Positions 3,375 to 28,790 of a DNA stretch of 50,670 bases are shown here, one piece after another. The notes under the pieces were generated by a model. That model was not told the DNA's origin. It saw only the letters and a list, made by a program, of their open reading frames with translations, and did no database searches. Each line of letters begins with the position of its first letter. Positions within the stretch are counted from its first letter, which is position 1. The position numbers and the translations under genes are program-made. Location: positions 1 through 50,670 of the forward strand of contig JBKPRI010000189.1 of the NCBI GenBank assembly GCA_046734515.1, in the 5' to 3' direction. This DNA is from Candidatus Methylomirabilota bacterium. Its GTDB lineage: Bacteria > Methylomirabilota > Methylomirabilia > Rokubacteriales > CSP1-6.

Positions 3375-4570
3375 TGGCCGAGCACATCGAGCCGCCCAAG
3401 AAGCCCGTCGGTCCCAGCACGCTGTCCGTGCACGGCGGCGAGCCGCGCCCGAAGCCGGCCAACTCGCTGGCCACACCCATCGTCCAGACGGCCACCTTCA
3501 CCTTCGCCAACACGCAGGAGCTGAAGGACCATTTCGACGGCAAGATCGACCGCGTCGAGTACGGCCGCTACGGCAACCCGACGCAGAAGATCGCCGAGGC
3601 CAAGCTGACCGCGCTGGAGGGCGCCGGCGACTGCCTGCTGTTCTCGAGCGGCATGGCGGCCATGACCACCGTGCTCTTCGCCATGCTCTCGCGCGGCACC
3701 CACGTGGTGGTCACCGACGACAGCTACCGGCGCACGCGCCAGTTCCTCAACCAGACGCTGCACCGCTACGGCATCGAGGTGTCGACGGTGCCGGCGGGGG
3801 ACTACGAGGCGCTGGAGGACGCGATCCGGCCGACCACGCGCGTGCTGCTGAGCGAGTCGCCGACCAATCCGTACAACCGCGTGCTCGACCTCGAGCGGTT
3901 CGCCGCCATCGGCCGCAAGCACCGCGTGAAGACGGTCATCGACGCCACCTTCGCCACCCCGTACAACGTCCGGCCGCTCGAGTGGGGCGTGGACATCGTC
4001 ATGCACTCGGCCACCAAGTACCTGGGCGGCCACAACGATCTGCTGGCCGGCGCCGTGCTGGGCTCGCGCGAGATCGTGGGCGCCGTGCGCAGCCTGCAGG
4101 GGATCACCGGCGCCATCGTGGATCCCTTCGCGGCCTACCTGCTGATCCGCGGCATCAAGACGTTCGCGCTGCGCATGGAGCGGCAGAACACCAACGCCCA
4201 GGCGCTGGCCGAGTTCCTGGCCGCCCATCCGCGCATCGCCGCCGTCCACTACCCGGGGCTGGCGAGCCACCGCGAGCACGACGTGGCCAAGCGGCAGATG
4301 CGCGGCTACGGCGGGGTAGTGTCGTTCGAGGTGCGCGGCGACATCGACGCGGCCGCGCGGGTGGTGGACGCCTGCACGATCCCCCACCTGGCGGTGTCGC
4401 TGGGCGGCGTGGAGAGCCTCATCGAGCAGCCGGCCATCATGAGCTTCTACGAGCTCACGAGCGAGGAGCGGCTGGAGATCGGCATCAAGGACAGCCTCAT
4501 CCGCTACTCCGTCGGCATCGAAGATGCCGACGACCTCATCGCCGACCTCGCCCAGGCCCTCGACCGCTAG
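3374..4570 (+). CDS. Cys/Met-metabolism PLP-dependent enzyme (cystathionine gamma-synthase / O-acylhomoserine thiol-lyase family)
   Basis: 398 aa. The PLP-lysine motif HSATKYLGGHND is present, with the family-typical YGRYGNPT and ESPTNP motifs. The ATG overlaps the thrC stop (TGATG). Confidence 0.9.
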
Positions 4571-5385
4571 GCCGCCGCCGCCGGCAGCTCGTCCGTCCAC
4601 ACGGTGAACTGCGTCAGGGTGGCCGCGCCGAACGACGTGGTGAGCGCGACGTCCACGGCGTCACGGCCGCGGGCCATGAGCACGCGGCCGATCCGCGGGC
4701 AGTTGTGACGGGCGTCGAGGGAACGCCAGGCGCCGTCCAGGTAGACCTCGGCCCACGCGGAGAAATCCATCGGCGACGGGCTCGGCGGCACCCCGATGTC
4801 ACCCAGGAAGCCGGTCGCGTAGCGCGCCGGGATGTTGAGCGCGCGCAGGAACGTGATGGCCAGGTGCTGGAAGTCGCGGCACACGCCCTGCCGCTCGAGG
4901 TAGACATCGACGGCGGACTTCGTCGCCCGCGCGAAAGGGTAGCCGAAGGTCACGTGCGTGTGCACCCAGTCCACCACCGCCTGCACGCGCTCCCAGGACT
5001 CGGGCGTGGCGCCGAAGAGCTCCCAGGCGATGGCGCAGAGGCGATCGACCTCGCAGTAGCGGCTGGCCAGCAGGTAGCGCCAGCAGTCGGGTGGCATCGC
5101 GTGCACGGGGGTGAGCCGGGCGCCGGCGATCGCCGGTTCCGGACGCCCCGAGTCCTCGACGACGTTGTCGTACCGGATCCGCACGGCGCCGGCCGGCGCC
5201 ACCAGGCGCGCGGCGCGATTGCCGAAGGCGTCGATGAAGTCCTCGACGGCGGTGGCCGGCTCGACCTCGATGCGCTCGGGCTGCCGCAGCCGCGCGGCGT
5301 GCTCGGGGTGGACGTAGAGCATGAGCTGCATCGGCGTCGGCTGCGGCACCTGGAAGCTGAGCTCGTAGCCCACCCGGATGTCCAT
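4567..5385 (-). CDS. transglutaminase-like family protein (Bact_transglu_N plus transglutaminase core)
   Basis: 272 aa. The N-terminus MDIRVGYELSFQVP...DAFGN is typical of bacterial transglutaminase N-domains. The catalytic Cys lies in the context QGVCRDFQHL, followed by His/Asp (..DARHN..). Confidence 0.85.
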   Translation of the reverse strand: MDIRVGYELSFQVPQPTPMQLMLYVHPEHAARLRQPERIEVEPATAVEDFIDAFGNRAARLVAPAGAVRIRYDNVVEDSGRPEPAIAGARLTPVHAMPPDCWRYLLASRYCEVDRLCAIAWELFGATPESWERVQAVVDWVHTHVTFGYPFARATKSAVDVYLERQGVCRDFQHLAITFLRALNIPARYATGFLGDIGVPPSPSPMDFSAWAEVYLDGAWRSLDARHNCPRIGRVLMARGRDAVDVALTTSFGAATLTQFTVWTDELPAAAA

Positions 5386-5434: not shown

Positions 5435-6211
5435 GTGACATACTGCGTCGGCATCTGGACCCGCGAAGGCCTCGTGATGGCCGCCGACTCGCGCACCAAC
5501 GCCGGCCACGACCAGGTGAACATCGCCCGCAAGATGCACGTGTTCGTGCAGCCCCGCGAGCGCGTGTTCGTCCTGCTCAGCAGCGGCAGCCTGTCCTGCA
5601 CGCAGTCGATCATCACGCTGTTGCGGCGCGACTTCGACGAGGGCAAGGGCCTGGCCCAGGCGCCCTCCCTCTACGACGCCGTGCGCATCATCGGCGACGA
5701 GGTGCGGCGCGTGTCGGACATGGATCGCCTGGCCCTGGAGCGGGACGACTTCAAGTTCAACGTGAACCTCATCGTGGGCGGCCAGGTGCGGGGCGAGCGG
5801 CCGGGACTCTTCATCGTCTATCCCCAGGGCAACCCGCTGCAGGCCAGCGAGGACTCGCCGTACCTGCAGATCGGCGAGACGAAGTACGGCCGCCCCATCC
5901 TCGACCGCGGCATCCGCTTCGACAAGACGACCCTGGAGGAGGCGGCGAAGTACGCCCTGCTGTCCCTGGACTCCACGATGCGCTCCAACGTGACCGTGGG
6001 GCCGCCGATCGACCTGCTCGCCTACGGCGTGGACGAGCTGGAGATCACGCGGCAGCGCCGGTTCCCGGCGAACGATCCCGACCTCGTGAAGATCGGCGTG
6101 CGCTGGGAGCAGGCCCTGCGCCAGGCGGTGGCCCGGCTGCCGCAGATCCGCTTCCGCGCCGGTGCCGAGAGCATCGTCCTCGTCGAGCCGCCGCCGCCCT
6201 CTCAAAGCTGA
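5435..6211 (+). CDS. Anbu (ancestral beta-subunit) proteasome-like Ntn peptidase
   Basis: 258 aa starting (GTG)M-TYCVGIWTREGLVMAADSRTNAG. The Thr directly after the initiator Met and the ..DSRTNAG.. motif are hallmarks of the Anbu clade of proteasome homologs. It sits next to a transglutaminase gene, as in Anbu operons. Confidence 0.8.
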   Translation: MTYCVGIWTREGLVMAADSRTNAGHDQVNIARKMHVFVQPRERVFVLLSSGSLSCTQSIITLLRRDFDEGKGLAQAPSLYDAVRIIGDEVRRVSDMDRLALERDDFKFNVNLIVGGQVRGERPGLFIVYPQGNPLQASEDSPYLQIGETKYGRPILDRGIRFDKTTLEEAAKYALLSLDSTMRSNVTVGPPIDLLAYGVDELEITRQRRFPANDPDLVKIGVRWEQALRQAVARLPQIRFRAGAESIVLVEPPPPSQS

Positions 6212-7458
6212 TCTCGCAGGGGAATCAGCGGCAGGTACAGCAGATGGCGCAGGACGTGGCGCCGCCACTCGTCGAGATTCACCGCGGTGGTCGACTGCAG
6301 GTCGCGCTCGAAGATCTCGGTCATGCGCTGGGCCAGGCGCCGGTCCAGGAACGTGACGTTCAGCTCGTTGTTCAGCGCGAACGAGGCGTTGTCGAGGTTC
6401 GCGCTGCCGATCGACACCCACTGGTCGTCGACCACCATGGTCTTGGCGTGCAGCATGGCCGGCCCGTACTCGTGGATCTTCACGCCCGCCTCCAGCACGT
6501 TGCCGAAGTGGGCCTGGCTGGCCTTGCGGACGATCTGGTTCTGCGTCCCGCTGACCGCCCCGGCCGTGATGATGGTCACGTCGACGCCGCGGCGGGCGGC
6601 GTCGGCGAGCGCGCGCGCCATGCGGGTGTCCGGGACGAAGTAGGGATTGGTGATCTTGATCGACGTCCGGGCCGCGTCGATGGTGAGCAGGAAGAGCAGG
6701 TAGGCCTCGGTGGCGCCGCTGGCCGGCGAGCTCTTGACCGACTGGATGGCCAGATCGCCGCGCGGCTCCAGCGGCGGGAAGTACGCGTCGCCGGCCAGGA
6801 GCAGCGTGGTGGCCTCGCGCCAGTCCTCGACGAAGGCCGCCTGCAGCGCGCGCACGACGGGACCCTCCACGCGCACGTCAGTCTGGCGCCAGTGCCCCGG
6901 CTGGCTGCCGTCGCCCGTCCATTTGTCGCCGATGCCGGTGCCGCCCGTGAAGCCGACGCGTCCGTCGACGACGAGCACGCGGCGATGGTTGCGATGGTTG
7001 ACGCGGCGGATCGTCAGCGGCCGCACCGGATGATAGCGCGCGAAGGCGCAGTTGGAGCCGGCCAGCGTGCGCACGAGCTCTTTCGGCATGGCGCTGGAGC
7101 CGATGGCGTCCACCAGGACGTTGACGCCCACGCCGGCGCGGCACCGCTCGGCCAGCGCCTCGACGATCTCGCGCGCAATCTCGCCGTCCTCCCACGAGAA
7201 GTTGGCGAAGGTGACGGTGCGCTGCGCGCCGCGGATCGCCTCCAGCATCGCCGGAAAGATCTCGTCGCCGTTGACCAGCACCTGCGCGCGGTTGCCCTCG
7301 ATGAGCCCCGAGAGCGTATGGGCCTCGACGGCGCGCACGAAGGCGGACTCGCCGATGGACACACCGGGCGCGATGTAGTCCGGCCGGCTGAGCGTGCAGC
7401 CGGCCAGCGTGACGCACAGCGCGGCGGCCATGACCAGGGCGTCCCTGAGCGCGCCCAT
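6202..7458 (-). CDS. phospholipase D / cardiolipin-synthase-like lipoprotein (two HKD-type motifs), copy 1
   Basis: 418 aa. The lipobox is VTLAGC. The first motif is NHRNHRRVLVVDG (Lys replaced by Arg). The second is canonical: LHAKTMVVDDQWVSIGSANLD. Confidence 0.85.
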   Translation of the reverse strand: MGALRDALVMAAALCVTLAGCTLSRPDYIAPGVSIGESAFVRAVEAHTLSGLIEGNRAQVLVNGDEIFPAMLEAIRGAQRTVTFANFSWEDGEIAREIVEALAERCRAGVGVNVLVDAIGSSAMPKELVRTLAGSNCAFARYHPVRPLTIRRVNHRNHRRVLVVDGRVGFTGGTGIGDKWTGDGSQPGHWRQTDVRVEGPVVRALQAAFVEDWREATTLLLAGDAYFPPLEPRGDLAIQSVKSSPASGATEAYLLFLLTIDAARTSIKITNPYFVPDTRMARALADAARRGVDVTIITAGAVSGTQNQIVRKASQAHFGNVLEAGVKIHEYGPAMLHAKTMVVDDQWVSIGSANLDNASFALNNELNVTFLDRRLAQRMTEIFERDLQSTTAVNLDEWRRHVLRHLLYLPLIPLRDQL

Positions 7459-8715
7459 CTAGAGCTGATCCCGCAGCGGCACCAGCGGCAGGTAGAAGAG
7501 ATAGCCCAGGCGATGCCGCATCCAGTCCTCCCGCGAGACGACGGTGGTGTACTTCAGGTCCTCCTCGAAGATCTCGGTGAGCCGACGCGCGAGCTGGCGA
7601 TCGAGGAAGGTGACGTTGAGCTCGTTGTTGATCGCGAACGACCGGTTGTCCAGGTTGGCGCTGCCGATGCTGACCCACTGATCGTCCACCACCATGGTCT
7701 TGGCGTGCAGCATGGCGGGGCCGTACTCGTGGATCTTCACGCCCGCCTCCAGCGCGTGGCCATAGTGGGCCTGGCTGGCCTTGCGCACCAGGCGGTCGAG
7801 CGTGGAATCGACCGCGCCGGCCGTGATGATCGTGACGTCCACCCCGCGCCCGGCGGCGGCGGCCAGCGCGCGCGCCATCTGCTTGTCCGGCACGAAGTAG
7901 GGGTTGGTCAGCTTGATCGACGACCGGGCCGAGTCGATGGCCAGCAGGAACAGCAGGTACGCCTCGGCGGCGCCGCTGGCCGGCGAGCTCTTCACCGACT
8001 GGATCGCCAGGTCGCCGGTCCGCTGGGGCTCCGGGAAGTAGGCGTCGCCGGCCAGCAGGATGCCGGTGGCATCGCGCCAGTTCTCCGCAAATGCCGCCTG
8101 CAGGAAGCGGACGATCGGCCCTTCCACGCGCACGTCGGTCTGCCGCCAGTGCCCCTCGTGGCGACCGTCGCCCGTCCACTTGTCCCCGACGCCGGTGCCG
8201 CCGGTGAAGCCGACGCGGCCGTCGACGACCAGGATGCGGCGGTGGTTGCGGTGGTTGAAGCGCTTGAGCGCGAACGGGTTGACCGAATGGTAGCGCGCAA
8301 AGTGACACCCGCTGGCGCTGAGCATCTTGCGCAGGGGCTTGGGCATCTTGCTGGAGCCGACGGCGTCGACGAGGACGTTGACGCCCACGCCGGCGCGGCA
8401 GCGTTCGGCCAGCGCCTCGGCCATCTCGTCGGCAATGGGGCCGTCTTCATAGATGAAGTTGGCGAACGTGATGGTCGTGCGGGCCGAGCGAATCGCGGCC
8501 AGCATCGCGGGGAAGATCTGCTCGCCGTTGACGAGCACCTCGGCCCGGTTGCCCTCGACGCGGCCCGACATCGTGTGGGCTTCCATCGCCCGGATGAAGG
8601 CAGACTCCCCCACATGGACGTCGGGGGCGGCATACTGGGGACGGCTGAGTGTGCAACCTGGAAATACGATGCACAGCGCGAGGGCGGCGAGGCGTGCTGA
8701 CCATGGCATACCCAT
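7459..8715 (-). CDS. phospholipase D / cardiolipin-synthase-like lipoprotein, copy 2 (tandem paralog)
   Basis: 418 aa. It aligns without gaps to copy 1 and is roughly three quarters identical by eye. The lipobox-like sequence is VFPGC. Motifs are NHRNHRRILVVDG and LHAKTMVVDDQWVSIGSANLD. Its stop TAG (7461-7459) directly abuts the ATG of copy 1 (7458-7456). Confidence 0.85.
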   Translation of the reverse strand: MGMPWSARLAALALCIVFPGCTLSRPQYAAPDVHVGESAFIRAMEAHTMSGRVEGNRAEVLVNGEQIFPAMLAAIRSARTTITFANFIYEDGPIADEMAEALAERCRAGVGVNVLVDAVGSSKMPKPLRKMLSASGCHFARYHSVNPFALKRFNHRNHRRILVVDGRVGFTGGTGVGDKWTGDGRHEGHWRQTDVRVEGPIVRFLQAAFAENWRDATGILLAGDAYFPEPQRTGDLAIQSVKSSPASGAAEAYLLFLLAIDSARSSIKLTNPYFVPDKQMARALAAAAGRGVDVTIITAGAVDSTLDRLVRKASQAHYGHALEAGVKIHEYGPAMLHAKTMVVDDQWVSIGSANLDNRSFAINNELNVTFLDRQLARRLTEIFEEDLKYTTVVSREDWMRHRLGYLFYLPLVPLRDQL

Positions 8716-9131
8716 GGGTGGTGCAGCAGGCGTGCCAGGTCACGATCCTGGTCCTCGTCCTCGCCGTGGCCCCGGTCTTCGGACAGCCCGGCGATGAAGG
8801 CTTCATCGAATATCTCCGGCGGCAAGATCCCGCGGCCGCCGAGCGCTTCGTGACCCTGCGCAGCGCGCGCGATGCCGCCCTGGCCGACTACCGCCAGGCC
8901 TCCGAGCGCTATAGCGCCGGGGGGCCTGCGCTCCGGTCGGTCTCGCTTCCCGCGCTCCAGCAGGCGAAGCGGCGCTACGCGGAGGCCTCGCTGGCCCTGC
9001 TGGACTTCCTCGACGAGCGCGATCGCGGGCTCATCACCAAGCTGGAGGCCGACATCGCGCGCGTGAATCGCACGCTGGAGGAGCGCGCCCGGGATCGCAC
9101 GGAGCTGCAGCGGATGCTGCGCGGCGAATGA
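8703..9131 (+). CDS. hypothetical secreted protein (signal peptide plus helical/coiled region)
   Basis: Track ORF 8649..9131, trimmed to MAYPWVVQQACQVTILVLVLAVAPVFGQPGDEG..., which has a hydrophobic signal-like N-terminus. I recognise no family. GTG at 8718 is an alternative start that avoids overlap with the divergent PLD start. Confidence 0.5.
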   Translation: MAYPWVVQQACQVTILVLVLAVAPVFGQPGDEGFIEYLRRQDPAAAERFVTLRSARDAALADYRQASERYSAGGPALRSVSLPALQQAKRRYAEASLALLDFLDERDRGLITKLEADIARVNRTLEERARDRTELQRMLRGE

Positions 9132-17107: not shown

Positions 17108-17917
17108 ATGCTCATCGTCGACGCGCAGGTTCACATCTGGTCGGGCGGCAAGCCGAGCAACGCCAATCACCGGCAGGTGACGACATTCACGGCCGAGGAG
17201 CTGCTGAAGGAGATGGACGAGGCCGGCGTGAACGCCGCCGTGATCCATCCACCCGCCTCGTGGGATCCCCACAGCAACGAGCTGGCGGTCGAGGCGGCAC
17301 GCCGGCACCCCGATCGCCTTGCCATCCTCGGCAACTTCCCGCTCGACAGGCCCGAGAACCACAAGCTGGTCGACACGTGGAAGCAGCGCCCGGGCATGCT
17401 GGGCCTGCGCTTCGCGCTCCTGCAGCCACAGCAGCAGACGTGGCTGACCGACGGCACGCTGGACTGGCTGTGGCCCGCTGCCGAGCGGGCCGGGCTGCCC
17501 GTGGCGCTCATCGGCGCAAACTTCGTGCAGGCGATGCCGAAGATCGCCGAGCGTCATCCCGGGCTCAAGCTCATCGTCGATCACTTCGGCCGGCCCGACG
17601 CGGCCTGGTCCAATCTGAACGAGGTGGTAGCGCTGGCGAAGTTTCCCAACGTCGCACTCAAGGCCACCGGCGCCCCGAGCTATTCCACCGATCCGTATCC
17701 CTACCGGAACATTCATGGCCACATCCGCCGGCTCTACGACGCGTTCGGCCCCGCGCGGATGTTCTGGGGCACCGACATCACGCGCATGCCGTGCTCCTGG
17801 CGGCAGTGCGTGACGATGTTCACCGAGGAGCTGCCGTGGCTGAAGGGCCGTGACCTCGAGCTGGTGATGGGCCGGGCGGTGTGCGACTGGCTCGGCTGGA
17901 CGCTGCCCGTGCGATGA
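17108..17917 (+). CDS. amidohydrolase-2 family metal-dependent hydrolase
   Basis: Track ORF 16874..17917 trimmed to MLIVDAQVHIW... (HxH-type metal motif). It has ..VDHFG.. and a C-terminal ..WGTD.. motif. Length is 269 aa. Confidence 0.8.
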   Translation: MLIVDAQVHIWSGGKPSNANHRQVTTFTAEELLKEMDEAGVNAAVIHPPASWDPHSNELAVEAARRHPDRLAILGNFPLDRPENHKLVDTWKQRPGMLGLRFALLQPQQQTWLTDGTLDWLWPAAERAGLPVALIGANFVQAMPKIAERHPGLKLIVDHFGRPDAAWSNLNEVVALAKFPNVALKATGAPSYSTDPYPYRNIHGHIRRLYDAFGPARMFWGTDITRMPCSWRQCVTMFTEELPWLKGRDLELVMGRAVCDWLGWTLPVR

Positions 17918-18897
17918 AGCGCGTCGACATCGACCGCTACGGCGCGCCCGAGGAGGTCGCCCGGTGCGTGGACGTGGCGGATGTCGGCGCACCGGGCGCC
18001 GGGGAGGTGGTCTTCGACGTCCTGCTCTTTCCGATCAATCCGGCCGACGTCTCGTTCTGCCGCGGCACCTACCGCCTGCGTCCGCCGCTGCCGGCCACGC
18101 CGGGCGCCGAGTGCGTGGGCCGCGTCACCGCCGTCGGCGCCGGCGTCGCGCACGTGAAGGCCGGCGACCTGGTCATCAACCTGCAGCGCGAGAACTGGGC
18201 GGAGCGCCGCCGCGTGAAGGCCGACGACGTGATCCTGGTGCCGGCCGGCACCGACCTGCCGCAGGCCGCGATGCTGCGTATCAACCCGCCGACGGCGCTG
18301 CTGCTCCTGAGCGACTTCGTCGAGCTGAAGCCGGGCGACTGGATCGTCCAGAACGTAGCCAACTCCGCGGTCGGCCGGCTGGTGATTCGCCTGGCGCGCG
18401 CACTCGGCGTGCGCACCCTCAACGTCGTGCGCCGCGAGTCGCTCTTCGCCGAGCTGACCGCGCTGGGCGCGGATGCGTGCATCGTGGACGGGCCCGATCT
18501 CGCCGCGCGCGCGACGGCGGCTACCGGCGGCGCTGCCGTGCGCCTCGCACTCGACGCCGTCTCCGGCCAGGCCACGGGACGCCTCTCGAGCTGCCTGACC
18601 GAGGGCGGCGTGGTGGTGAACTACGGGTCGATGAGCGGCGAGGACCCGGTGATGTCGCGCGCCGGGCTGATCGGCGGCGGTCAGAAGCTGGTGGGCTTCA
18701 TCCTCGGGCGTGGTCTCGCCACACGAACGCTCGATCAGGTGCGCGCGCTGTACGGAGAGCTCGGGCGCCAGGTGAAGGACGGCTACCTCGCGGCGCCGGT
18801 CGAGAAGATCTATCCGATCGAGGAGATCACCGCTGCGCTCGCCCACGCCCAGCGGGGCGAGCGCAGCGGCAAGATCCTCGTGGCGCCCAACGGCTAG
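17914..18897 (+). CDS. MDR-family NAD(P)H-dependent oxidoreductase (quinone oxidoreductase / enoyl reductase-like)
   Basis: Track ORF 17881..18897 trimmed to MKRVDIDRYGAPEEV... The ATG overlaps the upstream stop (ATGA). A GroES-like N-domain and a Rossmann segment VANSAVGRLVIRLAR are present. Confidence 0.85.
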   Translation: MKRVDIDRYGAPEEVARCVDVADVGAPGAGEVVFDVLLFPINPADVSFCRGTYRLRPPLPATPGAECVGRVTAVGAGVAHVKAGDLVINLQRENWAERRRVKADDVILVPAGTDLPQAAMLRINPPTALLLLSDFVELKPGDWIVQNVANSAVGRLVIRLARALGVRTLNVVRRESLFAELTALGADACIVDGPDLAARATAATGGAAVRLALDAVSGQATGRLSSCLTEGGVVVNYGSMSGEDPVMSRAGLIGGGQKLVGFILGRGLATRTLDQVRALYGELGRQVKDGYLAAPVEKIYPIEEITAALAHAQRGERSGKILVAPNG

Positions 18898-18903
18898 CGT
18901 CGA

Positions 18904-19017
18904 TCAGAAGTCCTTCGGCTCTCCGCCCGCCTTGCGCACTCCGCCCTTCACCTTGGCGCCGCCCTTCACGTTCAGGTCCTGGACCTTCTTGCCGCCGGTC
19001 TTCTTGGTCGTGCCCAT
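18904..19017 (-). CDS. small ORF A: 37-aa Lys-rich peptide (MGTTKKTGGKKVQDLNVKGGAKVKGGVRKAGGEPKDF)
   Basis: Below the 60-aa track cutoff and found by manual translation. The start is ATG 19017-19015, with GAGGAG 10 nt upstream and a TGA stop at 18906-18904. 35 of 37 codons end in G/C. It shares the KK-V-x-DL-x-VK..GG motif with ORFs B and C. Confidence 0.6.
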   Translation of the reverse strand: MGTTKKTGGKKVQDLNVKGGAKVKGGVRKAGGEPKDF

Positions 19018-19044
19018 CGCCGTCTGTCTCCTCAAGGATGGCTG

Positions 19045-19194
19045 CTAAGTGATGATGACCTCGTTGAGTTTCACGACCAGGTATTCCTGCTGACCGCCCC
19101 CGGACTTGCGTCCGCCGGCGACCTGCGCGGCCTTGGCGGCGTCCAGATCCTTGACGACCTTCTTGCTGCCCTTGCTCTTCTTCGGCTTCGCCAT
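19045..19194 (-). CDS. small ORF B: 49-aa Lys-rich peptide (MAKPKKSKGSKKVVKDLDAAKAAQVAGGRKSGGGQQEYLVVKLNEVIIT)
   Basis: Manual translation. The start is ATG 19194-19192, with AGGAG 6 nt upstream and a TAG stop at 19047-19045. 43 of 49 codons end in G/C. The N-terminus MAKPKK is identical to ORF C. Confidence 0.65.
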   Translation of the reverse strand: MAKPKKSKGSKKVVKDLDAAKAAQVAGGRKSGGGQQEYLVVKLNEVIIT

Positions 19195-19224
19195 GATCGG
19201 CTCCTTTCCCAGGAACGGGTTCGG

Positions 19225-19398
19225 TCAGAAACCCGGTGAGGCCGTGTCCGTGGTCTTCTTGATGGTGATTTCGGACAGCGACACCCTGCCGTCCGCGCCA
19301 CCGCTCACCCCTTGCGCCTCGCCGGTCGCGACGTCCTTCACCGCGAGATCCTCGACCGCCTTCTTACCCTTCGCCCGGTCCTTCTTCGGCTTGGCCAT
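19225..19398 (-). CDS. small ORF C: 57-aa Lys-rich peptide (MAKPKKDRAKGKKAVEDLAVKDVATGEAQGVSGGADGRVSLSEITIKKTTDTASPGF)
   Basis: Manual translation. The start is ATG 19398-19396, with AGGAG 7 nt upstream and a TGA stop at 19227-19225. 50 of 57 codons end in G/C. Confidence 0.65.
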   Translation of the reverse strand: MAKPKKDRAKGKKAVEDLAVKDVATGEAQGVSGGADGRVSLSEITIKKTTDTASPGF

Positions 19399-19458
19399 CG
19401 CCTGGCTCCTTCCTGTTCCCCGGCTGCTCGGGCCGGTCGCCTGACGCGGGGTCCCAGG

Positions 19459-19475
19459 TGCATCGAGCCTGCCAG
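19459..19475 (-). promoter_or_regulatory. candidate sigma54 (-24/-12) promoter upstream of the small-ORF trio
   Basis: The minus strand reads CTGGCAGGCTCGATGCA, against the consensus YTGGCACGrNNNTTGCW. GG and GC have the exact canonical spacing. It lies about 60 nt upstream of the ORF C ATG. Confidence 0.35.
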
Positions 19476-19550
19476 AGCGGGATCCCCGCTAATCACGCGA
19501 TTCTGCCGCGGGTCGCCCAGGCGCGGGGTCGTTTCGCCCGGGCAGGCCCC

Positions 19551-21077
19551 CTAGCGCTTGAGGCGGATCTCCTCGTAGGGGTAGGAGAAGGCGTGGCCGG
19601 GGATGAGGCTGAGGGTCGACGGATCGACGCGCGGCCCGACGCCGCTGAGGAAGGCGGGCTCCACGATCGGGGCGAACATGGCGCGCTCGTACATGAGCTG
19701 CTGGATCTTGTGGAGCATGGCCTCGCGCTTCCGGGGGTCGAGCTCGACGGCCTGCTCGCGGAAGAGGCCGTCGATATCCGGGTAGCCGCCGTAGGACCGG
19801 ATGCCGCCGGTGATGACGAAGGCCTCGATGCGCGTGGCCGCATTGCCGGCCGCCGCACTCCCGGGGCGCACGAGCTTCTTGAAGCTCTTCTCGGCATCGC
19901 CCTTGTAGAAGGCTGCGCGCTCCAGCGGGCGGAGCTTGGCCCGGATGCCGACGTTGAGCAGGTTGTTCACCACGGCCTCGCCGGTGCCGGCATAGACGGC
20001 ATCGCAGACCAGCTCGCCGGCGTCGAAGCCCTTCGCGTAGCCGGCCTCGGCCAGCAGCTTCCTGGCGCGCTCCGGCTCGTAGGGATACGGCGGCGCCGGC
20101 CAGTAGAACTCGAAGACGTGCGGGATGATGCTGGCCGTCGGGCGCGCGTGCCCGAGGTACTCGGCGTCGTTCAGCGCCTTGCGATCGATGGCGAGGTTCG
20201 CGGCCAGGCGCACCCGCTGGTCGTGCCACGGTGATTTCGGATCCCACTGCTCCGTGAAGACGACCCACTCCGTGAAGGTCGGCGTGGAGGCCTTGAGCGT
20301 GAGCCCAGTCGTGCGCTTGACCTCCTCGGCCAGCGCCCCGCGCAGCGAGTAGGCGATGTCGGCCTCTCCGCGCTTGAGCATGGCCAGGCGCGTGGTGTCG
20401 TCGGGCACCGAGCGGAACACCAGCCGCTTGACGCTCGGCACCTTGCGCCAGTACTGCTCGTTGGCCTCCAGCACCAGCTCGACGCCCGGGTTGAACGACA
20501 CGAACTTGTAGGGCCCGGCGCCGATCGGCGCCTTCTTGAAGCCGTCGTCGCCGACCTTCTCCACGTACTTCTTCGGCACGATCCACGCGGCGCCCGTGGC
20601 CGGCGTGCCGTAGAACGTCATGAAGTCCGGCCACGGCTGCTTGAGCCGCATCCGTACGCGCCCGGCGTCCACCACCTCGACGCCCGCAATCTTTTCCTTC
20701 AGCGTACCGGCCGCCGCGCCCTTGTAGCGCTCGAAGGAGAACTTCACGTCCTCCGCGGTGACCGGTTCGCCGTTGTGGAACTTGACGCCCTTGCGCAAGA
20801 CGAACTCGTAGACGCGCCCGTCCTTCGACACCGTCCACGACTCGGCCAGGCTCGGAGCCACGGTCTTGTCGGGCATCGGCTTCACGAGGGCGTCATGCAT
20901 GGCGTACAGCATCATGAACGGCGTGATCACGGCCGGCGTCTCGGCCGGATCGAACCACGTCGGGGCCAGCGAGACGTGGACCGCCCACGTCACCTGGCCC
21001 TCGGGCGCGGCAAGGGCCGGCGCGCCGCCCGCGAGGAGAAGGATCAGGACGACGGCGAGCGTGGCAACGCGCCTCAT
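19551..21077 (-). CDS. ABC transporter substrate-binding protein, family 5 (peptide/nickel type), orphan
   Basis: 508 aa with signal peptide MRRVATLAVVLILLLAGGAPALAAP. Family-5 SBP motifs are present (..HNGEPVTAEDVKFSFER.., ..GAGPYKFV..). GGAG lies upstream of the ATG. Confidence 0.88.
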   Translation of the reverse strand: MRRVATLAVVLILLLAGGAPALAAPEGQVTWAVHVSLAPTWFDPAETPAVITPFMMLYAMHDALVKPMPDKTVAPSLAESWTVSKDGRVYEFVLRKGVKFHNGEPVTAEDVKFSFERYKGAAAGTLKEKIAGVEVVDAGRVRMRLKQPWPDFMTFYGTPATGAAWIVPKKYVEKVGDDGFKKAPIGAGPYKFVSFNPGVELVLEANEQYWRKVPSVKRLVFRSVPDDTTRLAMLKRGEADIAYSLRGALAEEVKRTTGLTLKASTPTFTEWVVFTEQWDPKSPWHDQRVRLAANLAIDRKALNDAEYLGHARPTASIIPHVFEFYWPAPPYPYEPERARKLLAEAGYAKGFDAGELVCDAVYAGTGEAVVNNLLNVGIRAKLRPLERAAFYKGDAEKSFKKLVRPGSAAAGNAATRIEAFVITGGIRSYGGYPDIDGLFREQAVELDPRKREAMLHKIQQLMYERAMFAPIVEPAFLSGVGPRVDPSTLSLIPGHAFSYPYEEIRLKR

Positions 21078-27066: not shown

Positions 27067-28790
27067 CACATCTCCCAGTCGTCGTACCAGGTGGCCTCGG
27101 CGCCGATGCCCTCGCGCGCGACGCTGACGTCGAGCAGGTAGGGCCGCCGCTGCTTGTTGACGACGTCCAGCCCGCGGCGGAGCGCCGGCTCGAGGTCCTT
27201 CAGCGTGGCGACGGTCTCGCCGTCCACGCCCTGCGACTTCGCGAGCGCGGCGTAGTCGATGGCCGGGTCGCCGAGGAACAGGCCCGGATACTTGTTGTCG
27301 CGCACCATCTTGCTGTCGGGCATCTGGTTGGCCCAGTTGTGGCGCACGACCTGGTAACTCTCGTTGTTCGACACGATGGTGAGGATCGGCGTCTTGTAGC
27401 GCGCCATCGTCCAGAACCCGCTGGCGCTGTAGCCGAGCGCCCCGTCGCCGAGGTGCAGCACCACCGGGCGCTCGTGGCCGGCGGCGATCTTGGCGCCGAT
27501 GGCGGCGCCCACGCCGAAGCCGAGCGAGCCGCCGCCGCTGCGCGTCCACGTCATGCCCTGATGGCCGAACGCGATCAGCCCCGTGCGCGCCGTCGAGCTC
27601 TCCTGCACCATCACGGTGTCGCGCGGAAGCATGTCGGCGAGCTGCGCGCCGAGGACCGCCGGGTGGATGACCGCGTCGTGCGCATGCTCGCGGACCAGCG
27701 TCTCCTCGCGCTCGATCAGCGTCTTCGCGAACGCGCGCACCTTGGCCCGCTGCTTCGCCCAGCCCTCGGCGCCCGGCCGCTTCTTGAGCGCCTCGCACAC
27801 CGCGGCCAGCGTCCCCTTCACGTCCGTCTGGGCCGCGAGATCGAGCGGGTAGTGCCGGCCCATCAGGATGGGATTGGGGCCGATCTGGAGCACGCTCGGC
27901 TCACCGACGGCGCCGTGCACGCCCTGGCAGCCGACGAGGAACAGCACGTCGGGCTTGAGCCCGGCGATCTTCTCGAAGTCCTTGGCCACCGGATAGTTGC
28001 CGCAGAAAAGCGGATGGCGATTGGGGAAGTTGACGAAGATCTGCCGGCTCGCGAAGACGGGAGCTTCCAGCAGCTCGGCGAGCTTCACGGCCTCCGCCTG
28101 CGCGCCGTCGCGCCACACGTCGTCGCCGAACATCAGCGCCGGGCACTTCGCCTCGGCCAGGCGCCTGGCGATCGCCTCGACCGTGGCCGCCCGCGCCGGC
28201 GCCGGCGGCTCGATGCGATAGCCCGCGCCCTCGCCGATCTCGACTTCGAGCCCCTCGCGGTTCAACAGCTCGGCGCTGATGGAGAGGTACACGGGCCCCG
28301 TCGGGGGCGTGGAGGCCTCGCGCAGCGCCCGCACGGTGGCGACCGGAATCGCGGCGGGATTGGCGTGCACCTGGTACGAACAGCGCGCTTCCTTCGTGAT
28401 GGGCCGCATCGACTCCGCCTGGCTGAGCCCGGGGAAGGGCGCCAGCCCCCGATAGTCCTGCAGCTCGGACGCCCAGTCGCCCGCGATGACGAGCACGGCG
28501 GAGCCGGCGACCTGCGCGTTGAAGAGCTGGCCGCTCAGCTGATGCGAGCCGCCCATCACGTGCGCGATCACCACGCCGACCTTGCCGCTGATGCGGTGAT
28601 AGCCATCGGCCATCGCGGCCACCAGCCCCTCGTGCTTGCCGATCACCAGACGCGGGTCCTCCGTCTCGGCGAGCGCGGCGAAGATGCCGGTCTCGGCGGA
28701 GCCGGGATTGGTGAACAGGTAGTCGACGCCCGCGTCCTTCAGCGTCTGCACCAGGAGCATGCCGCCCGTGCCGGTGATCGTCTTGCGCAT
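27066..28790 (-). CDS. thiamine-pyrophosphate-dependent enzyme (benzoylformate decarboxylase / acetolactate synthase-like)
   Basis: 574 aa. The N-terminus is GGMLLVQTLKDAGVDYLFTNPGSAE. The ThDP-binding motif is GDGALGYSASGFWTMARYKTPILTIVSNNESY. Confidence 0.88.
   Translation of the reverse strand: MRKTITGTGGMLLVQTLKDAGVDYLFTNPGSAETGIFAALAETEDPRLVIGKHEGLVAAMADGYHRISGKVGVVIAHVMGGSHQLSGQLFNAQVAGSAVLVIAGDWASELQDYRGLAPFPGLSQAESMRPITKEARCSYQVHANPAAIPVATVRALREASTPPTGPVYLSISAELLNREGLEVEIGEGAGYRIEPPAPARAATVEAIARRLAEAKCPALMFGDDVWRDGAQAEAVKLAELLEAPVFASRQIFVNFPNRHPLFCGNYPVAKDFEKIAGLKPDVLFLVGCQGVHGAVGEPSVLQIGPNPILMGRHYPLDLAAQTDVKGTLAAVCEALKKRPGAEGWAKQRAKVRAFAKTLIEREETLVREHAHDAVIHPAVLGAQLADMLPRDTVMVQESSTARTGLIAFGHQGMTWTRSGGGSLGFGVGAAIGAKIAAGHERPVVLHLGDGALGYSASGFWTMARYKTPILTIVSNNESYQVVRHNWANQMPDSKMVRDNKYPGLFLGDPAIDYAALAKSQGVDGETVATLKDLEPALRRGLDVVNKQRRPYLLDVSVAREGIGAEATWYDDWEM

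Follow-up and report, generated by a model that had tools for sequence, protein, structure and literature searches.

A putative sigma54-controlled array of double-glycine leader peptides with cores related to the type VI secretion protein Hcp

Class II bacteriocins, Gram-negative GG-type peptides and pheromones of the ComC/BlpC kind are exported by peptidase-containing ATP-binding cassette (ABC) transporters; each is made as a small precursor in which a leader ending in Gly-Gly is followed by a C-terminal core. This report concerns three small tandem genes (C, B and A) on the minus strand of a 50,670-nucleotide (nt) stretch of Candidatus Methylomirabilota DNA (assembly GCA_046734515.1, contig JBKPRI010000189.1), referred to here as the window, and the peptide family to which they belong. 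The family resembles the GG-leader peptides in precursor layout, in the leader consensus positions -4, -12, -13 and -15, in the occurrence of tandem arrays with different cores and, at one related locus (L110), in the presence of a HlyB/PCAT-clade ABC exporter with a HlyD adaptor. It differs in the strongly basic N-terminus of the leader (about +6), in Ala at -7 and in its apparently sigma54-dependent transcription. In addition, most family arrays, including that of the window, stand alone as orphans, without a transporter or immunity gene in the vicinity, and the cores differ in that they are copied segments of the structural protein Hcp.

Double-glycine leaders have the quoted consensus M(R/K)ELX3E(I/L)X2(I/V)XG(G/A) and are processed by C39-peptidase ABC transporters together with HlyD; positively charged double-glycine precursor families are also on record (PMC3140520). 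The same source, summarising Haft et al. 2010, describes the Nif11-like and NHLP precursors of ribosomally made peptides that are modified after translation (RiPPs) as paralogous sets in which one leader, again ending in Gly-Gly, precedes hypervariable cores, a layout that the present family shares; such precursors often lie far from their transport cassette (C39-ABC, second ABC, HlyD) and orphan precursors are usual (PMC3140520). Further points of likeness are the Nif11-like leader of one family relative (P0140) and the good scores of the L110 exporter against TIGR03796 and TIGR03797. In contrast, Nif11-like and NHLP leaders are about 60-80 amino acids (aa) long and homologous to Nif11 or to the nitrile hydratase alpha subunit, while the window leaders are 26-34 aa long and have no similarity to them. 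No partner of the LanM, cyclodehydratase or radical SAM kind was seen, and the family cores are not comparably rich in Cys, Ser, Thr and Gly.

Hcp (TssD; PF05638, TIGR03344) forms the tube of the type VI secretion system (T6SS), which ranks among the main weapons used on contact in microbial communities. By alignment, the family cores are homologous to Hcp residues of about 48-68, 64-89 and 86-115 and keep the motifs DKASP, ACATGxH and RKAGxGQQEYL. They differ from Hcp in holding only 10-35 residues of the fold of about 160 residues, so that a beta-barrel or a hexamer ring is not possible; the N- and C-terminal thirds are never represented, each fragment is fused to an export-type leader, and no T6SS genes lie nearby. 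In the T6SS of Vibrio cholerae and Aeromonas, hcp operons are under VasH-type sigma54 control. The combination of a sigma54 promoter and an enhancer-binding protein for an Hcp-related coding sequence is similar here, while the activator found beside related arrays differs in being 330 aa long and without an N-terminal sensory domain.

Three small genes and their double-glycine-type leaders

The first-pass annotation of the window had proposed three minus-strand open reading frames (ORFs) in the gap between the stop codons at 18897 and 19551. They are recovered with exactly the same coordinates and translations. The other ORF calls in this gap, on the plus strand or off-frame, are rich in Arg and Pro and are shadows, as had been suggested. 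The genes and their parts are as follows.

19225..19398, minus strand: gene C, 57 aa, orthologue of pep3; leader of 34 aa and core of 23 aa
19398-19297, minus strand: leader of gene C, MAKPKKDRAKGKKAVEDLAVKDVATGEAQGVSGG, 34 aa
19296-19228, minus strand: core of gene C, ADGRVSLSEITIKKTTDTASPGF, 23 aa; Hcp segment a, Hcp residues 48-66 (strand, loop, helix start)
19045..19194, minus strand: gene B, 49 aa, orthologue of pep4; leader of 28 aa and core of 21 aa
19194-19111, minus strand: leader of gene B, MAKPKKSKGSKKVVKDLDAAKAAQVAGG, 28 aa
19110-19048, minus strand: core of gene B, RKSGGGQQEYLVVKLNEVIIT, 21 aa; Hcp segment b, Hcp residues 86-106 (turn and long strand)
18904..19017, minus strand: gene A, 37 aa, orthologue of pep5; leader of 26 aa and core of 11 aa
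19017-18940, minus strand: leader of gene A, MGTTKKTGGKKVQDLNVKGGAKVKGG, 26 aa
18939-18907, minus strand: core of gene A, VRKAGGEPKDF, 11 aa; Hcp 86-95 loop
19411-19406, minus strand: Shine-Dalgarno site of gene C, AAGGAG
19206-19201, minus strand: Shine-Dalgarno site of gene B, AAGGAG
19033-19028, minus strand: Shine-Dalgarno site of gene A, GAGGAG

AAGGAG or GAGGAG lies 6-10 nt ahead of all three ATG codons, and the spacers between C and B and between B and A are 30 and 27 nt. The GC content of third codon positions is 0.88, 0.88 and 0.95 for C, B and A; the peptides contain 9, 10 and 9 Lys, and AAG is used for 27 of the 28 Lys codons. All of these values, recomputed here, are those of the first-pass annotation. 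The stop codon of gene A is 6 nt from the stop of the convergent alcohol dehydrogenase gene. The trio had also been called unannotated; this does not hold strictly, as the exact 57-, 49- and 37-aa products are already in the public protein collection from the NCBI record of the same contig. Only the entry for C carries a name (‘hypothetical protein’); those for B and A are nameless.

Comparison with orthologous loci shows, at the level of sequence, that C, B and A are real small genes. Protein searches return few close relatives, all of 36-68 aa and all from soil or rhizosphere metagenomes. The same locus is found on 13 metagenome contigs, where the peptide reading frames are kept and the gene order is ABM, two SBP_bac_5, an array of three to six small genes, convergent ADH_zinc, Amidohydro_2 and beta-lactamase. 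The flanking solute-binding protein (SBP) is 95-96% identical among orthologous contigs and the peptides diverge more; their differences consist of whole-codon indels and of substitutions biased to the third position (9/12 substituted positions in B, 11/21 in C). The homologue comparison suggested with the first-pass annotation thus finds frames and Gly-Gly position kept, third-position bias and a varying copy number.

Among orthologous arrays the leaders are nearly invariant and the cores variable. The fullest arrays (L001 and L007) hold six peptide types, of which the window keeps pep3 (C), pep4 (B) and pep5 (A); L001 also holds a leaderless remnant. The region upstream of the window array precedes a different first gene, pep1, in L001, L007 and L013; pep1 and pep2 have therefore been lost from the window array. 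Repeats of leader-coding DNA inside the window are short and diverged, which indicates that the paralogues are old and are not recent duplicates.

The wider family was collected by profile search. Among 1.84 billion cluster representatives there are 68 matches at E<1e-3, about 50 of which are peptides of 37-86 aa; a 5.8-billion-protein set gives 501 matches, full-length Hcp proteins included. Members come from soil metagenomes, from Rokubacteria/Methylomirabilota and from other organisms of lower GC content. Leader and core statistics are based on 52 diverse aligned members, C, B and A among them. Gly-Gly is present at the leader/core junction (-2, -1) in 52/52 members. Other preferred leader residues are V/I at -4 (94%), A at -7 (69%), L/V at -12 (83%), D/E at -13 (75%) and V/I/A at -15 (62%). 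In the products of the window array the leader is about 26-34 aa long with a basic N-terminus, and its last 15 residues follow the pattern V-K-D-L-x4-A-x2-V-x-G-G, with D V x3 E A x2 V S G G in C and D L x3 K A x2 V A G G in B. Over the 52 members, median leader length is 30.5 aa with a net charge of +6, and median core length is 22.5 aa with a net charge of +1. Apart from positions -7 and -8, the family profile agrees with the double-glycine consensus (PMC3140520); together with the invariant Gly-Gly, this bears out the earlier proposal of a double-glycine-type leader.

The same core types are also found behind acidic leaders of the bacteriocin type. Both ...LSEAEIDKVTGG and ...IVELSEAEIDKVTGG precede the core RKAGGEQQDYLVVKIEEVIVTS; ...LTDEELQIVAGG precedes RKAGEGQKEF..., and ...ELTADELEHVAGG is a further leader of this kind. 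Acidic variants of the KDL leader occur in P0030, P0041 and P0079. The basic N-terminus is therefore dispensable, and the -15 to -1 motif is not. The acidic-leader relatives match curated leader models only below threshold. P0140, with its Nif11-like leader, matches TIGR03798 (E 3.7e-6) and PF07862 (E 7e-4), both sub-threshold; P0031 matches the BlpC double-glycine pheromone model at E 1.5e-4 with 21 bits against a cutoff of 70, and P0080 has a weak match (E 0.006) to the ‘ATP-grasp target RiPP’ model. The window peptides themselves have no match to TIGR03798, TIGR03793 or PF07862.

Some relatives carry several tandem units in a single ORF (L105 5291-5764, minus strand; L107 1190-1420, minus strand; P0031; P0076). 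Each unit consists of a mini-leader, e.g. AKPAKKDLPAGKDVKGG, and a short core ending in NDN[VL]TLVR or NHNET.V, and these ORFs look like multi-core precursors with the same leader logic; the final unit of the L105 ORF carries the short Hcp core. The repeat core NDNVTLVR was considered as a C-terminal strand of Hcp and rejected, as the resemblance has no significance (z = 0). Another array, at L094 237-1453 (GC content 0.60), has acidic double-glycine leaders with two Hcp-fragment cores and two others, in which GG is followed by LVVIAIIGVLIGMLLPSTQAAVETN or FVIYGAEVRGFIVDGCAEVRGFIIDGS. The first of these may resemble the N-terminal helix of a prepilin or DUF1559 protein; sequence searches of Pfam, NCBIfam and PDB find nothing that confirms a pilin likeness.

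Cores and the tube protein Hcp

The first-pass annotation had likened the residues after Gly-Gly to conserved strands of Hcp. On the present comparisons the resemblance is one of descent: the cores are homologous to Hcp and come from an hcp gene. The B core is identical to the 158-aa Hcp protein P0130 at 18/21 positions (E 6e-11). When core families are aligned with a 51-member Hcp family in hhalign, type b gives 98.9% probability and E 1.9e-17 over 30 columns (Hcp 86-115), and type a gives 97.5% probability and E 8.8e-12 over 24 columns (Hcp 48-71). Significant matches of the family profile in PDB (E<=2e-3) are all Hcp chains (3v4h, 1y12, 8yun and 4tv4); three weaker rows with E 0.08-0.9 are fimbrial and ribosomal chains.

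Single peptides give less. Against the Pfam model T6SS_HCP (PF05638, cutoff 23.5 bits), a check proposed with the earlier claim, C scores 17.7 bits (E 0.0047, profile positions 33-65) and B 13.3 bits, both sub-threshold, and gene A has no match; the family-level hhalign comparison is significant, and one 54-aa family member lies above the Pfam gathering score. Shuffle z-scores of the cores against P0130 show the same picture. B reaches 19, while C (3.5) and A (1.2) are weak alone and their significance lies in their orthologues and families; the pep5 orthologue of A maps to Hcp 86-95 with a z-score of 8.8.

All cores were mapped onto P0130, for which the AlphaFold model has a predicted local distance difference test score (pLDDT) of 87.8. 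The recurrent core types are placed as follows.

Core type a: Hcp 48-68
Core type c (LLNACATGTHIQK): Hcp 64-89
Short core type, ending in [DE][YF]-stop, recurrent, includes that of window gene A: Hcp 83-95
Core type b: Hcp 86-106/115

On the model, type a covers the strand at 50-60, the next loop and the first half of the helix at 65-74, and type b covers the turn at 88-94 and the strand at 95-111. No core maps to Hcp 1-47 or 116-158. Short cores recur in unrelated arrays as RKAGEKPIEF, RKAGEKPLEY, RKAGGGQVDY and RKAGKPQQEY. For type b, the consensus drawn from 43 distinct cores agrees with that of Hcp at 18/21 positions. No T6SS gene is found in the window or at any related locus examined, and some source annotations mislabel family peptides as ‘Hcp’.

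Hcp segments also occur in other arrangements. P0035, P0053 and P0050 (200-570 aa) contain four to eight tandem copies of Hcp segment a (GKAVFQDLSVTKYIDKATPKLL...) within larger repeat units. L118-L121 (10001-10492; 1-4700) carry a full-length Hcp that matches type-b cores almost exactly in its central segment and looks frameshifted at its C-terminus; no T6SS genes lie within 10 kb of this orphan hcp gene. About 5 kb upstream of it lies an RTX-type type I secretion system (T1SS) consisting of a HemolysinCabind protein, a C39-ABC exporter and an adaptor.

Promoter, export machinery and genomic setting

Promoters of the sigma54 type are marked by -24/-12 elements. The array and its surroundings contain the following features.

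19459..19474, minus strand: sigma54-type -24/-12 element TGGCAGGCTCGATGCA, its GG and GC spaced as in the consensus; its end lies 60 nt upstream of the gene C ATG
19399..19550, minus strand: conserved stretch at the 5' end of the array, bounded by the SBP stop codon and the first peptide ATG; includes the promoter element and the Shine-Dalgarno site of gene C
19551..21077, minus strand: SBP_bac_5 solute-binding protein gene; left border of the insertion, probably outside the system
17881..18897, plus strand: zinc-type alcohol dehydrogenase / quinone oxidoreductase (ADH) gene, Pfam ADH_N and ADH_zinc_N; convergent, right border of the insertion, outside the system

The sigma54 pattern (TGGCAC-N5-TTGCW type) has two matches in the window against 0.63 expected. 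Orthologous loci show that a conserved sigma54-type promoter element lies ahead of the array, and its activity may be inferred: the stretch CTCTGGCAGGC[T/G]CGATGCAC is invariant in the window, L001, L002, L007 and L013, and its flanks vary. TGGC-N8-TGC is also found at the independent insertion sites L095/L096 and L102, where it lies 58-76 nt upstream of the ATG of the first peptide gene, and at a similar distance in L110/L113/L114 and L116; in L114 it precedes 3/4 of the peptide genes found there. In 1.8 Mb of related DNA this pattern has a background frequency of 0.021 per 150 nt. The sigma54-like promoter noted in the first pass is thus conserved across orthologous loci and recurs at independent ones. 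Inheritance of the promoter from hcp is unsupported, as a -24/-12 element is missing from the single full-length hcp locus examined (L118-L121). The second site in the window (TGGCACGCCTGCTGCA, 8722-8737, minus strand) directly precedes a tandem pair of PLD-like lipoprotein genes on that strand (7459-8715, then 6202-7458).

At L110 (contig Ga0335083_10049625) the array stands beside candidate regulatory and export genes. The order is an ABC exporter (ABC_membrane and ABC_tran), a HlyD adaptor, a sigma54 activator, the promoter element TGGCGCGAAGTTTGC and the peptide genes; L113 and L114 repeat the arrangement of activator and array. In all three loci the activator is a 330-aa protein immediately upstream of the array with Sigma54_activat and HTH_8 domains and no receiver domain. 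The best NCBIfam matches of the L110 exporter are HlyB-type T1SS, NHLP bacteriocin exporter and bacteriocin_ABC, and among bacterial PDB structures it matches HlyB and PCAT1 best. The study of homologue neighbourhoods that had been suggested therefore links an array with an ABC exporter, HlyD and a sigma54 activator. No exporter or maturase gene is found beside about 12 other independent arrays, where the neighbours are unrelated metabolic genes. At L096 10001-12553 (also L097 and L098), a lone type-b peptide gene has behind it DUF2167, a 241-aa membrane protein of unknown kind and a rhomboid protease; the contig carrying P0088 lacks these last three at its related site.

The neighbouring SBP has hundreds of relatives, nearly all in metagenome-assembled genomes (MAGs) of Candidatus Rokubacteria/Methylomirabilota; 543 of them are in Rokubacteria MAG loci. 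A six-frame hmmsearch finds a leader peptide encoded in 0/80 Rokubacteria SBP loci, and a leader-pattern scan of GTDB representative genomes gives no true match; the array at this locus is therefore confined to a narrow clade. In one Rokubacteria MAG (L020, 2290-2308) SBP and ADH adjoin with a 17-bp gap and without peptides, and in L026 (4242-7166), where the SBP is 90% identical, a 974-aa ORF sits at the array site. Judged from these junctions, array and promoter are a lineage-specific insertion between convergent genes. The empty site in L020 and the other ORF in L026 make the SBP/ADH intergenic region look like an insertion hotspot. A functional link between peptides and SBP is rejected because of the same two junctions. 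The first-pass annotation was right that two SBP genes stand beside the trio; the association is probably coincidental. No viral contigs were found carrying the peptides.

The rest of the window consists of metabolic genes, the two PLD-like lipoproteins, a response regulator and a hybrid kinase. Pfam searches on 20 of its larger ORFs return metabolic and sensor genes only, and these searches together with motif scans find no T6SS gene, ABC ATPase, C39 peptidase, sigma54 activator or RiPP enzyme; the earlier claim that T6SS, ABC/C39 and modification genes are missing from the window agrees with this. Motif scans find no GAFTGA, GESGTGK or C39-like motif in the window and no credible ABC-ATPase motif, the single ABC-signature match (position 27996) having no Walker A and looking off-frame. 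Unrelated to the peptides, a transglutaminase-like gene (4567-5385, minus strand) adjoins a gene for a proteasome-type subunit (5435-6211, plus strand).

Proposed working, alternatives and meaning

The reading favoured here, to which we give a probability of roughly 0.6, is that the window carries an orphan array of sigma54-controlled double-glycine precursors, which would be cleaved after Gly-Gly and exported, releasing Hcp-mimicking peptides of 11-23 aa. The sigma54 holoenzyme and an enhancer-binding protein encoded elsewhere in the genome would transcribe the array from the element at 19474-19459, and C, B and A would each be translated from their own Shine-Dalgarno site. A C39-peptidase ABC exporter and a HlyD adaptor, also encoded elsewhere, would recognise the -15 to -1 motif, cut after Gly-Gly and export the cores. 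Cleavage and export are inferred from the leader profile, the bacteriocin-type and Nif11-like leaders of relatives and the exporter and activator beside the L110 array. The released peptides may then mimic Hcp segments, whether by interfering with assembly of the Hcp/T6SS tube, as a decoy or as an Hcp-like signal; this last step is speculative and is favoured because the cores keep residues that are conserved in Hcp.

A number of observations weigh against this reading. The window has no exporter, C39 peptidase, activator or immunity gene, and most known array contexts are short metagenome contigs. Alignments of the L110 exporter start near residue 220-250 of full-length proteins, and the contig ends where C39 would lie. 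Position -7 of the leader is mostly Ala (I/L only about 6%) and position -8 is mixed E/K/D, often Lys; a net charge of +6 is unusual among leaders of the bacteriocin, NHLP or Nif11 type. At E<=10 the window peptides match none of the curated leader and bacteriocin models in Pfam and NCBIfam, PF10439, TIGR01847 and TIGR03949 among them. An AlphaFold model of B built with the family alignment has a pLDDT of 58.8 and only a short helix before Gly-Gly, and is uninformative.

Other explanations differ in whether the peptides are modified, sensed, kept in the cell or functional at all. Nif11-like leaders are a class known from modified peptides, and the leader might recruit unlinked tailoring enzymes (e.g. 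ATP-grasp, radical SAM or epimerase) before export, to RiPP precursors in which the Hcp-like cores serve only as cross-link scaffolds. The Nif11-like leader of P0140, the weak ‘ATP-grasp target RiPP’ match of P0080 and the richness of the cores in Ser, Thr, Lys, Asp and Glu would fit; this is unlikely, since no maturase is found beside the array in about 12 independent neighbourhoods, among them the L110 cluster with its exporter, adaptor and regulator only, Cys is present in only 3/52 cores, and the cores keep the Hcp consensus (18/21) instead of a modification motif. It is quite unlikely that the products stay uncleaved in the cell as basic proteins that bind nucleic acid or ribosomes or that modulate assembly of the producer's own Hcp in the cytoplasm. 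The leader charge, the lack of an exporter in the window and beside most arrays, and the orphan full-length Hcp genes of similar soil assemblies would suit such a role, but the same cores occur with acidic (P0030, P0041, P0079), bacteriocin-type or Nif11-like leaders, so that charge is dispensable while Gly-Gly, V-4 and L-12 are not, and the L110 array adjoins an ABC exporter and a HlyD adaptor. The suggestion of a basic nucleic-acid binder made in the first pass is weakened by these acidic-leader relatives.

Exported double-glycine pheromones or quorum signals like ComC or BlpC, sensed by the producers and without action on Hcp, would explain the very short cores of 10-11 aa (such as that of A) which recur across arrays, the dedicated activator in L110, L113 and L114 and the sub-threshold BlpC match of P0031. 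The arrays have no linked sensor kinase, a single array can contain as many as six different cores, and signalling alone does not account for the strict keeping of Hcp-conserved residues; a pure signalling role is improbable. The least probable explanation, and one that is largely refuted, is non-functional debris, in the form of decaying hcp fragments or chance ORFs in GC-rich DNA. The cores are indeed fragments of a known gene, array content varies from three to six genes with a leaderless remnant in L001, and the array at this locus is limited to a narrow clade. Against this, every fragment comes with an ATG and a Shine-Dalgarno site of its own and with a conserved leader, frames are kept with codon indels only, dozens of members with several leader types keep Gly-Gly and the Hcp-conserved residues, and promoter elements are conserved.

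A bolder reading is that the cores are natural ‘fragment-mimic’ peptides: exported copies of the most conserved, assembly-critical segments of Hcp in another cell, which would poison that protein, co-aggregate with it or decoy its partners, as a sigma54-switched defence or weapon against T6SS. This fits the observations that the cores tile only the central strand-helix-strand of Hcp (48-115), keep its consensus at 18/21 positions and, in one array, have as a neighbour the core that may resemble a pilin N-terminal helix; the proposal is doubtful.

Full-text literature searches return no description of such peptides, and no curated Pfam or NCBIfam model names the family; the first-pass statement that no such family had been described is consistent with these empty searches. 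The logic of the export leader is already known. The basic KDL...VKGG leader subtype, its sigma54 control and above all the cores made from fragments of a T6SS structural protein appear to be undescribed. At present, family genes are nameless or mislabelled ‘Hcp’. If the reading is true, the double-glycine leader family would be widened to a basic, sigma54-regulated type that is missed by bacteriocin and RiPP miners and by curated hidden Markov models. The cores, at 11-23 aa, would be short, synthesisable peptides that can be tested on Hcp assembly and T6SS killing. Common, overlooked soil bacteria would secrete peptides whose active parts are taken from the T6SS tube protein; exported peptide cores could then arise by capture of conserved fragments of structural proteins, and the array may represent a natural route to sense, mimic or sabotage T6SS.

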